A DNA stretch of 64,000 nucleotides from Candidatus Aenigmatarchaeota archaeon (GTDB lineage Archaea; Aenigmatarchaeota; Aenigmatarchaeia; CG10238-14; SpSt-28). Below are positions 1,946 to 4,310 of this stretch, piece by piece. Location: assembly GCA_039000725.1 (NCBI GenBank), contig JAWBNO010000001.1:397152-461151 (forward strand), written 5' to 3'. Position numbers and translations under genes: made by a program. The first letter of the stretch is position 1. The number at the start of each line of letters is the position of its first letter. The notes beneath the pieces were generated by a model that was not told the DNA's origin, did not search any database, and was given only the letters and a program-made list of their open reading frames with translations.

Positions 1946-2308
1946 ATGAGATTAAAAGATAGATACTATCTAATTAGGCAATTGACTAATTTAATTGAAG
2001 AAATGAATAAAGATTTAGATTTTGTTATAGTCGAAGGGAAGAAAGATAAAAAAGTTCTAAACATTTTAGGATTTAAGAAAAAGATATTACTACTAAGTTC
2101 AAGATTGATACTAAAAGGAAAGTTTACTATTTTGACAGATTTTGATAAAGAGGGCAAAAGATTAGAAAAGATTTTGTTAGAAAAATATGGCGATAAGAAT
2201 TTTGTGAGAATATATAGAAAAAAGTTTTACGAGTTATTAGAAGAATATAATATCAAAGAAATTGGAGATTTGGAGAAATCTATAAAAGAAGTTTCTAATC
2301 TATTTTGA
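1946..2308 (+). CDS. Small stand-alone TOPRIM domain protein (RNase M5/primase-like)
   Basis: VIVEGKKD and LTDFDKEG TOPRIM motifs; start moved to ATG 1946 because the longer ORF overlaps tRNA-Lys. Confidence 0.8.
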   Translation: MRLKDRYYLIRQLTNLIEEMNKDLDFVIVEGKKDKKVLNILGFKKKILLLSSRLILKGKFTILTDFDKEGKRLEKILLEKYGDKNFVRIYRKKFYELLEEYNIKEIGDLEKSIKEVSNLF

Positions 2309-3911
2309 ATCTAGTTATAGCTCCTATACCACCCATACTTTTAAATTGTTTACCTTCTTCTGTGTCTTCAGAAACGATATTAATTTTGGCGCCAAGGCTT
2401 TCAGCTTTTTCTATAATTTCGTCGCTAATTTCACTTTCGTACTCTTTTTTCATCTCTTCCCCACAAATTTCACATAAAACTTTTTCATCTCTTTTCACAT
2501 ATTTTTCACTTTTGTGTCCATTTATACAAACAAAACCAGCCTTCAAATAATCAAAATCTTCTGATATAATAAGTTCATCAATAGCATTATATTCTAGCGC
2601 CTTTAACACTTTGTTTAAGCCAATAATGGCATTTTCTCCTCTCTTTAAAGCTAAAAACAGTTTATTTAAAATCGATTTTTCTTTAATTATTTCTGCTTGT
2701 TGTAATACATCTTCACTTCTTTTTACTAACTCTTCTAAGCCATATTCATCTGTATAGCCAACATCTTTTATTCCAAGAATTTTATTTTTTATTTGATAAT
2801 TCAAATAGTCCTCTTCTTTTAATCTTTCTTTAATCGGGCCAGGCCCACCAATTAAAACACCCAGAACATTTTCTTCAAGAAATATAGAAGATGCTACTTC
2901 TCCTACTTTAGTTAAAAACTCATTTATAGCGTCTTCTCTCAGTCTATCATATCTTCCTTGAGAATTATGTACTAATAGAAAATTGGCAAGATAATTTCCA
3001 TATGGCTCAACTTCTAGGTCATAAAAGAATACAGAAGCCTCTATTTCACTATCACTTATATTTTTAATTTTCTTTTCTATTAATTTTTCCTTCTCTAAAA
3101 CTAATACAGTATCTCCTTTGGCTAGATCTTCTACTCTTTTTTCTTTAATTTCACCATTTTCTTTAACAAATATAATATGATCGTAACTTGCAATTATGCT
3201 ATCTTTTTCGAAGAAAATTTTTTTAGCTTTATCAACGTGTCTTTTGAATACTTCTTTAACTTTCCCAATTTTAATAGAATTTTCTATAAAGTCGAAGCAA
3301 AGAACCTCGTCACCCTTTTTAATTTTGTTTATTGGAATTTTTTGGTAAGAAGAATTTATTATTTCTGTCGATCTATGTAAACACATACCACCTTTAACAG
3401 TTTTGCTTGGAACTGTTGACTCCAATCTCTTCCTAACAATAATTTTTTTACCTTTTAAAACTCCTATAGTAGCTTCTTTTGCATCCAAAACTATTAATCC
3501 ATAAACATCTTTTTCTTTAATCATATCTCTTAAAGGATCTAAGACAAAAACTTGATCACACCAATATATTTTTGTTTCAAGTTTTTCTGGAGGTTCTATA
3601 GACCAAAGTTTTATATCTTCTTTTCCTTCTACAGGAGATACATTTCCAGCAAATACAACTAATCCATTGGGCGGGGTTTGTTTAAATAATCTCAAATGTT
3701 GAATTATCTTTTCTAAAGCAGCTACAACATTCTTTCTAGTATTTTTACTCTTTATGTTCTCTGCAGTAGATCTTTCTTCAATAAGTTGATTTATTACTTC
3801 TATTAAATTATATCCCGCAGGAATATAAACAGAAACCAATTCAGTATGTCTTCCTTTAATTTTTTCTAGTTCTTTAATAAGTTTTTTAAGTTTAGTAGAG
3901 TTTTCGCTAAA
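2295..3911 (-). CDS. prf1: Peptide chain release factor aRF1 with mini-intein; 5' end lacks a canonical in-frame start
   Basis: KGRHTELVSVYIP, NIKS, YWCDQVF, GGPG and GGIGAITRF motifs; frame is open up to 3911 (TTT) with a TAA directly upstream. Confidence 0.93.
   Translation of the reverse strand, partial: FSENSTKLKKLIKELEKIKGRHTELVSVYIPAGYNLIEVINQLIEERSTAENIKSKNTRKNVVAALEKIIQHLRLFKQTPPNGLVVFAGNVSPVEGKEDIKLWSIEPPEKLETKIYWCDQVFVLDPLRDMIKEKDVYGLIVLDAKEATIGVLKGKKIIVRKRLESTVPSKTVKGGMCLHRSTEIINSSYQKIPINKIKKGDEVLCFDFIENSIKIGKVKEVFKRHVDKAKKIFFEKDSIIASYDHIIFVKENGEIKEKRVEDLAKGDTVLVLEKEKLIEKKIKNISDSEIEASVFFYDLEVEPYGNYLANFLLVHNSQGRYDRLREDAINEFLTKVGEVASSIFLEENVLGVLIGGPGPIKERLKEEDYLNYQIKNKILGIKDVGYTDEYGLEELVKRSEDVLQQAEIIKEKSILNKLFLALKRGENAIIGLNKVLKALEYNAIDELIISEDFDYLKAGFVCINGHKSEKYVKRDEKVLCEICGEEMKKEYESEISDEIIEKAESLGAKINIVSEDTEEGKQFKSMGGIGAITRFKID
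2964..3383 (-). mobile_element. Mini-intein (140 aa, no homing endonuclease) in aRF1
   Basis: Starts CLHRSTEI, block B-like ASYDHIIF, block F FYDLEV, ends LLVHN followed by Ser. Confidence 0.92.
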
Positions 3912-3931
3912 TTATATTCACCCTAAAATAT

Positions 3932-4261
3932 CTATTCTCTTATTATTTCAACAAAAGAAGGAGCAAGAATTAAATAACCGTCCTGAGTTCCAACAATATC
4001 TATTTTGTTTTGTTTACAATTTCTTTTTAGTTTTTCCAATAAAGTTTGCATATAGCCAAAATCCTTTTTTTGTAATTCTTGGGTTTTAACAATAACTATC
4101 ATTTGTCTAGCCAACCTAATTATTTTATCAACATCTTCACTTTTGTTTAATTTTTCTATTTTTATTTTGAGCTTTTCCTCTTCTTTTATTTCCTCTTCTG
4201 GTACTATTTCTATCTCTCCTTCACTTTCTTTTTTAGAAGGGAAAAAATCACTAAACGCCAT
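3932..4261 (-). CDS. sepF: Cell division protein SepF (archaeal type)
   Basis: Amphipathic N-terminus, acidic linker, core ending DIVGTQDGYLILAPSFVEI. Confidence 0.72.
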   Translation of the reverse strand: MAFSDFFPSKKESEGEIEIVPEEEIKEEEKLKIKIEKLNKSEDVDKIIRLARQMIVIVKTQELQKKDFGYMQTLLEKLKRNCKQNKIDIVGTQDGYLILAPSFVEIIRE

Positions 4262-4310
4262 GCATATTTTTTGTTTCTAAATATTTAAATGCCTATCCTT
4301 TAATTACAAT

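Follow-up and report, generated by a model that had tools for sequence, protein, structure and literature searches.

A conserved ATT-stop overlap at the start of the aRF1 gene in an order of Aenigmatarchaeota, a candidate prfB-like frameshift switch on an archaeal release factor

The bacterial gene for release factor RF2, prfB, is the textbook case of autoregulation by frameshifting at a gene's own stop codon. Also in bacteria, the infC gene for initiation factor IF3 has a conserved AUU start codon that is in frame and sensed by IF3, with no adjacent stop and no change of frame. The 'shifty stop' +1 sites of Euplotes (AAA-UAA/UAG) and minimal open reading frames (ORFs) of the form AUG-stop use a stop codon after a slippery or start codon as a pause or shift signal; these cases are eukaryotic, do not lie on a release-factor gene, and do not have start and shift in one codon. 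The only demonstration of such autoregulation for an eRF1-like gene comes from giant viruses; the study concerned (Jeudy et al. 2012, PMC3521657) gives the bacterial RF2 site as CUU-UGA-C and the release-factor sites of the viruses as CUU-UAG-C or CUU-UAA-C, and states that archaeal and eukaryotic homologues have no switch of this type. Here we describe the start of the gene for the archaeal class-I release factor aRF1 in a 64,000-nucleotide (nt) stretch of a Candidatus Aenigmatarchaeota genome (GCA_039000725.1, contig JAWBNO010000001.1; hereafter the window), where an ATT codon overlapping a stop stands in place of an ordinary start and may serve as a switch of this kind.

The predicted aRF1 protein matched three Pfam domains above their cut-offs (eRF1_1, 2.9e-16; eRF1_2, 5.7e-33; eRF1_3, 6.8e-20), which identified it as a class-I release factor, and it was the only such match in the genome of the window. 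The stop-recognition motifs of domain 1, named as in PMC3521657, were present as ENIKSK (NIKS) and YWCDQVF (YxCxxxF). The aRF1 reading frame (2295..3911, minus strand) comprised 538 codons from TTT (3909..3911) to the stop codon at 2297-2295, and its opening TTT aligned with the Met of homologues that start with ATG. On the minus strand the region reads, in order, TAG (3934-3932), 8 nt, GGGTGA (3923-3918), ATATA, ATT (3912-3910), TAG (3909-3907) and C (3906). In the aRF1 frame the same letters are read as TAA (3914-3912), TTT (3911-3909), AGC and GAA, with a TGA two codons above the TAA, and ATT-TAG-C thereby overlaps TTT-AGC at an offset of +1. The first in-frame ATG, GTG or TTG was the TTG at 3839-3837, which is codon 25 and lies within the conserved block GRHTELVSVYIP (GRHTELVS); this bore out the first-pass annotation, which had reported no in-frame canonical start before that point. 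With stops one and three codons upstream and the first canonical start in the conserved core, there is no other route into the aRF1 frame. Readthrough from an in-frame start farther upstream was considered and rejected, as both TGA and TAA stand within three codons upstream in this frame. Codons 2-19 were open in this frame only, and six comparisons within the genus of the window (g1) gave 35 synonymous versus 20 non-synonymous codon differences over them.

The GGGTGA element (3918..3923, minus strand) resembles a Shine-Dalgarno (SD) sequence and is complementary to the 3' tail of the organism's own 16S rRNA, GGATCACCTCCT. It contains a GTG (3919..3921) that could open a four-codon frame, GTG-AAT-ATA-ATT, closed by TAG; both this frame, which we call ORF0, and a distance of 5 nt between GGGTGA and ATT were found as first annotated. 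ATT-TAG (3907..3912) would provide both the P-site codon, which may double as the start codon, and the stop to be sensed behind it, and the C at 3906 a weak termination context. No stimulatory local RNA structure was found: 3846-3940 folded at -3.9 kcal/mol (z = +0.95), and 168 of 200 shuffled sequences were at least as stable.

We propose that the ATT-stop overlap is a prfB-like +1 shift site that senses the level of aRF1 and exerts negative feedback on it, a reading to which we assign a probability of roughly 60%. The SD-like element would set the ribosome on AUU, leaving the A site to a stop codon, which is UAG in the window and UAA or UGA in relatives, with C next. Plentiful aRF1 would terminate ORF0 after one codon, or after four if translation began at GUG. 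If aRF1 were scarce, the ribosome would wait, slip +1 onto UUU and read on from AGC-GAA, making aRF1. The layout of the site, its conservation, its confinement to this gene and the unusual stop context are observed; the shift, its control by the aRF1 level and the start codon of ORF0 are inferred from comparison.

The proposal rests on the agreement of NUU-stop-C, with UUU as the +1 codon and on a release-factor gene, with the RF2 and giant-virus sites. Like prfB, the aRF1 gene codes for a class-I release factor, its main frame lies +1 relative to a short ORF0, its junction reads NUU-stop-C with UUU as the landing codon, and an SD-like element stands upstream; the implied logic, by which slow termination would lead to more factor, is also alike. 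The two differ in that aRF1 has the aRF1/eRF1 fold and belongs to an unrelated protein family, that the P-site codon is AUU in all 59 loci described below (never CTT) whereas prfB uses CUU, and that any of the three stops occurs, which fits an omnipotent factor. In addition, ORF0 has one or four codons compared with about 25 and may lack a canonical start, and the SD-like element lies 5-6 nt from the shift codon rather than 3 nt. Like infC, the locus codes for a translation factor and has a conserved AUU where the start is expected. Mimivirus R726 and Megavirus mg280 are likewise genes of the eRF1/aRF1 family that need a +1 shift, and the stop-C context is rare here just as UAG-C is a rare stop context in the viral genome; the viral case (PMC3521657) differs in that it also needs UGA readthrough, places the shift well inside a longer 5' region and uses CUU rather than AUU. 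The plant eRF1-1 gene (PMC5397192) is similarly under negative feedback through the efficiency with which a stop in its own mRNA is read; there, however, the stop lies at the gene's 3' end, control works by readthrough and nonsense-mediated decay, and no frameshift is involved. No report of such an aRF1 frameshift device in archaea was found in the literature searched, paper supplements not included, and a 2021 review of archaeal recoding had no occurrence of aRF1 or prfB. As far as the sequence can tell, the site would be an independent, prfB-like invention on an unrelated fold. If real, NUU-stop-C would have arisen independently on release-factor genes three times, this being the first case in which the organism is cellular and its factor omnipotent, and no ORF0 could be shorter.

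The first-pass annotation had suggested an alignment of aRF1 5' regions from related genomes. We gathered 106 loci from 105 of the 118 genomes of the order to which the window belongs and extended the set by 90 loci belonging to other orders of the class, of which 89 were counted (L136 had no anchor and was left out). All 195 counted loci were anchored on the GRHTEL block, and a locus was scored as lacking a start when no in-frame canonical start stood at least 13 codons before this anchor. By this measure 51 of the 195 loci lacked a start, and in every one of the 51 an in-frame TTT was preceded by A and followed by AA, AG or GA; the same A-TTT-(AA/AG/GA) combination was found at the start of 27 of 136 homologues with canonical starts, and its presence at the start-less loci exceeds chance. 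Twenty ambiguous loci were read singly, of which 8 (L027, L033, L034, L044, L050, L060, L066 and L093) were assigned by hand to the motif class and 12 to the canonical class. Five loci at contig edges (L074, L145, L180, L187 and L192) had ATG starts and were kept as canonical. The totals were 59 motif loci and 136 canonical loci (ATG 131, GTG 3, TTG 2), so that the ATT-stop overlap recurred in 59 of 195 loci with a common layout of SD-like G-run, 5-7 nt and A-TTT-(AG/AA/GA)-N. The TTT was 20 codons before the anchor in 42 of the 59 motif loci, and the ATG was at that distance in 52 of the 136 canonical ones.

The motif was concentrated in the order of the window, where it was carried by 58 of 106 loci, which were spread over 23 of 43 genera and comprised every one of the 18 loci of one family (f5), compared with 1 of 89 loci in the other orders of the class. 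Among named public records, the closest of which were Candidatus Aenigmatarchaeota, 17 of 58 anchored loci carried it (L245, without an anchor, was left out of this count). All 17 were titled Aenigmatarchaeota or 'uncultured', one of the latter being titled as a Gammaproteobacteria bin. Within this named set the motif was absent from records titled Woesearchaeota, Altiarchaeota, Hadarchaeia, Nanoarchaeia, Iainarchaeum, Micrarchaeia, Methanosarcinales and Sulfurovum. One practical consequence is that gene callers will truncate or misplace the aRF1 start in about half of the genomes of this order. One bin of the survey (G107) held two aRF1 genes, L031 on a 2.7-kb contig (C113) and L054 on another (C172). 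The protein of L031, which is counted among the 58, was 90% identical to that of the window, and this copy is probably contamination from the genus of the window.

Column statistics were taken from one representative per genus (24), aligned on TTT. In these, A-T-T-T-A at positions -1 to +3 was invariant, +4 was always A or G, +5 was C in 18 of 24, and G-G-T-G at -11 to -8 was present in 19 to 23 of 24, while the six letters between varied. Over all 59 motif loci, A stood directly before TTT without exception, and the overlapping stop was TAA in 37, TAG in 21 and TGA in one (L077), no other pair following TTT. The aRF1 residue that the stop overlaps was Asn in 27 loci, Ser in 21, Lys in 10 and Asp in one. 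As the overlapping triplet is always a stop while the encoded residue varies, it is the stop that is kept and not the amino acid.

The letter after the stop was C in 45 of the 59 motif loci. Second codons of the types AAY, AGY and GAY in these loci had a C:T ratio of 45:4, compared with 395:611 where these codon families occur elsewhere in the N-domain of the loci concerned and 13:10 for the second codon of ATG homologues. Because kinship among the genomes makes the Fisher P for this excess of C overstated, we put weight on the size and consistency of the effect. In the genome of the window, C followed 38 of 549 stops of long ORFs (7%, in a genome with 14.8% C) and was the rarest base at this position. 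These 549 ORFs ended in TAA (328), TGA (125) and TAG (96); as each of the three terminates long ORFs, none is reassigned, and a single omnipotent factor is expected. The stop in the motif is one read by the encoded factor, with C next, and stop-C may be a weak context for this aRF1. When the same genome was scanned for an SD-like tetramer, 4-8 nt and ATTT with a stop-forming pair, 142 sites were found. Only the aRF1 site combined a closed frame upstream, a long ORF downstream and no nearby start, and no other gene among the 142 sites shared its layout; the next four best candidates had ordinary ATG starts nearby.

These patterns bear on another possibility, that translation starts directly at UUU (or at AUUU taken as one start), with no shift or sensing, a weak start keeping aRF1 low and the stop being incidental. 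TTT stands at GGTG-N7, which is within the N5-8 range of the genome, and it aligns with the Met of ATG homologues. A TTG start could become TTT by one G-to-T change, and one locus (L087) has A-TTG-AAA at the homologous place, so that a one-base route to TTT exists. Weak starts are also known on translation-factor genes, AUU in infC being an example. However, UUU differs from AUG at two positions and is nearly inactive as a start in E. coli surveys, and a direct start would leave unexplained the invariant A at -1, the pair that always forms a stop (including the one GA) and the C in 45 of 59 loci. We regard a direct start at UUU as improbable.

The spacing of the SD-like element is informative about where ORF0 begins. 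Genome-wide in the genome of the window, GGTG stands 5-8 nt before starts with a mode of 5-6, and ATG homologues of the same order have GGTG-N5-8-ATG, mostly with N6. GGTG-N6-ATT (or GGTGA-N5) was found in 45 of the 59 motif loci, a spacing that is not the 3 nt between SD and shift codon of prfB and equals the SD-to-ATG spacing of the relatives. Since GGTG stands at initiation distance, where the ATG relatives keep their SD, ATT may itself be the start codon. A leader with GGUG-N6-AUG is described for the aEF1A mRNA of Pyrococcus abyssi in PMC6237735. ORF0 would then be a single codon, AUU, a choice that we make tentatively and favour slightly over GUG. It is possible, and a little more doubtful still, that the shift occurs on the initiating ribosome: initiator tRNA would sit on a near-cognate AUU, the first A-site codon would be a stop, and the outcome would be decided between aRF1 and the +1 slip. 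If true, a one-codon ORF0 would merge start-codon choice, termination sensing and frameshifting, in a lineage where a GGxSQ loop replaces the usual GGQ of release factors (described below).

The first-pass annotation had ORF0 start at the GTG instead. In this variant translation would begin at GUG within GGGUGA, ORF0 would have four codons (Met-Asn-Ile-Ile), and peptidyl-tRNA-Ile would slip from AUU to UUU when UAG is read slowly; its likelihood is part of, not additional to, the roughly 60% given to the frameshift proposal. A GTG was present in frame exactly three codons before ATT in 45 of the 59 loci, and N6 was constant though the spacer letters differed. A stop between GTG and ATT was found in one locus only (L033, GTG-GAT-TGA-ATT-TAA), that is in 1 of 46, compared with about 4.5 expected by a hand estimate from the column frequencies of the 24 representatives. 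The retention of GTG at N6 together with the scarcity of intervening stops weighs against a start at AUU and leans towards one at GUG. The product would span 23 codons up to the anchor, as in 13 of 136 canonical homologues, and tRNA-Ile would, by reasoning, re-pair on UUU better than initiator tRNA. The in-frame GTG was, however, absent from 14 of the 59 loci; in L056 GGTG is 7 nt from ATT and the GTG out of frame, and in L033 the GTG is followed by the stop just mentioned. Because the GTG belongs to the SD-like element, it lacks a separate SD; the sequence before it is A/T-rich, and the ATG homologues use this same GGTG as an SD at N5-8. The claimed GTG start thus stood as a frequent in-frame codon and not as a general feature of the site, and we consider a start at GUG rather unlikely.

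The genes upstream differed among lineages. In the window, a SepF-like ORF (3932..4276, minus strand; PF04472 E value 1.7e-4, below cut-off) ends in TAG 8 nt before the SD-like element. In several families a class-I aminoacyl-tRNA synthetase gene (tRNA-synt_1 and Anticodon_1) stands upstream, for example at L018:2-1471, L025:1995-3464 and L027:3-1469, with a conserved end ...KDL.KMHNI(V/I); the genus of the window has the SepF-like ORF instead. The synthetase stop lies 11-13 nt before TTT, which places the site inside an operon and not at its 5' end. Two other possibilities were also considered. A leaderless mRNA starting at the GTG was not supported and a promoter was ruled out, the conserved upstream stretch being the 3' end of the synthetase gene. 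A contig from an RNA library (X14 record 2) spans 3857-4053 and reaches from the last part of the SepF-like ORF across the start of aRF1, DNA carry-over being possible for this library; the two genes are probably co-transcribed.

The 11-13 nt between the synthetase stop and TTT in many relatives are typical of translational coupling and would suit an explanation in which AUU-stop is a start-stop decoy or roadblock that holds or discards ribosomes without a shift. Synthesis of aRF1 would then depend on occasional initiation or re-initiation close by, perhaps linked to termination on the upstream gene. Minimal AUG-stop ORFs are known to stall ribosomes in plants. Yet 51 of the 59 loci have no start-like codon in the aRF1 frame near the site, and the loop would be self-defeating if scarcity of aRF1 merely stalled ribosomes. 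The upstream context, moreover, varies by lineage (SepF-like ORF, synthetase or neither) while the motif stays constant, and we judge the decoy highly improbable.

An error in the sequence had to be considered, because replacing TTT by TTG, or deleting a single base, would create a normal start and the genome is a metagenome bin of 89.9% completeness. The first-pass annotation had named such a single-base error (TTG to TTT at 3911-3909) as an alternative and had proposed mapping raw reads over 3900-3925. The stretch occurs in hot-spring metagenomes of several studies, and contigs were compared across the site from three DNA runs (X3, X4 and X9) of three studies and from one RNA library (X14). 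A contig from another study (X4 record 12) was identical to the window over 3839-3958, with 0 differences. Among the matches listed from X3, X4, X9 and the contigs of the RNA run X14, there were no substitutions or indels within 3901-3927. A contig of a diverged strain (X9 record 19) had 21 differences over 310 nt, including 3891, 3895, 3900 and 3928 on either side of the motif, with none listed inside it. These contigs and the recurrence of the motif in relatives refuted the single-base error. A pseudogene is contradicted by the intact 538-codon frame with all three eRF1 domains in the sole aRF1 match of the genome; with the identical sequence in another study and the motif in 59 loci of many genomes, the chance that the site is an artifact or a decayed gene is negligible.

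Two events at the level of RNA were considered as well. RNA editing at the consensus level was rejected, as no differing letters occurred within 3901-3927 among the matches listed, including the RNA-library contig (X14 record 2), which also had no indel among them. Transcriptional slippage was considered unlikely, the T run being only 3 long (4 with no flanking run). Contigs of X4 and X9 were seen to carry a diverged version, of the same length, of a 230-nt stretch of the aRF1 N-domain (3573-3804), which points to co-existing strains or recombination among them.

Several observations weigh against the proposed frameshift control. Reasoning from the anticodons, re-pairing from AUU to UUU should be weaker than from CUU to UUU, with 2 of 3 pairs for tRNA-Ile and about 1 for initiator tRNA. 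The SD-like element, at 5-6 nt from the shift codon and not at 3 nt, looks like an initiation signal rather than a stimulator of the shift, and Sulfolobus aIF1 discriminates against non-canonical starts according to PMC6237735, which is unfavorable to initiation at AUU. The eight loci moved by hand into the motif class do contain an in-frame TTG or ATG, judged incidental; it precedes the SD, follows the SD by 1 nt, or stands 5-6 codons into the conserved helix. Related genomes are also not independent observations, the source of the overstated Fisher P noted above. In a FastTree phylogeny of 195 loci (152 N-domain residues), the trait needed at least 14 changes, which would fit easy gain and loss, so that deep conservation is not proven. 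As the same tree did not recover the order as one clade, no conclusion is drawn on single or multiple origin. Taken with the evidence above, the first-pass suggestion of a stop-sensing +1 shift was upheld as regards the conserved stop overlap, the invariant A and the C in 45 of 59 loci, and was weakened by a GTG start that is not universal and an SD that is not at the prfB distance. If the frameshift reading is correct, the site would offer archaeal or eukaryote-like systems a small, naturally occurring sensor of their capacity to terminate translation.

Two loci had layouts close to the motif. L234 reads GGTG-N5-ATT-TAG-C, which puts the GTG in the aRF1 frame, and this is how a shift that was lost, or never needed, would look. 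Together with L087, the A-TTG-AAA locus, it may represent an intermediate or reverted state of the device.

The catalytic loop of the same protein was also unusual. In the window the loop (2955-3395, minus strand) does not contain GGQ and reads GGM, an intein, and then SQGRY. In the order of the window, the residue after GG could be seen in 84 loci and was M, W, A, Y or F in all 84, never Q, compared with Q in 23 and W in 3 of 26 loci from other orders of the class. Relatives without the intein read GGMSQ, GGWSQ or GGASQ, and by analogy the Gln two residues on (GGxSQ) may take over from that of GGQ. A GGxSQ loop has been described for VLRF-1 families in PMC6514570. It is the order lacking GGQ that also has the ATT-stop device; as both types of start occur with GGxSQ within the order, no causal link is claimed. 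The finding bears on how far the catalytic loops of release factors can vary.

The insertion in the loop is a mini-intein of 140 amino acids (aa) (2964..3383, minus strand), placed exactly between GGM and SQ and not part of the start signal. PF14890 scored 35.0 bits, just below its cut-off of 35.8, and PF01079 was weak. The insertion was identified as an intein by its junctions, C...HN followed by S, which were kept in 14 intein-bearing relatives, and by the intein-free relatives, which join GGM directly to SQ. An intein in this loop is common in the order. Relatives with larger inteins at the same place had open frames of 732 to 982 aa, compared with about 400-410 aa in those without an intein.

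The 16S rRNA gene used for the SD comparison was located with the Rfam model at C1:382940-385070 (L256), where the match spans 1987 nt and is over-long. About 100 extra nt separate the 3' tail GGATCACCTCCT from the conserved GGTAGCCGTA block, and this stretch may be an intervening sequence. Just downstream of aRF1 in the window, a tRNA-Lys(CTT) gene was found at 1836-1911 on the minus strand, overlapped by a 168-codon frame at 1802-2308 on the plus strand.

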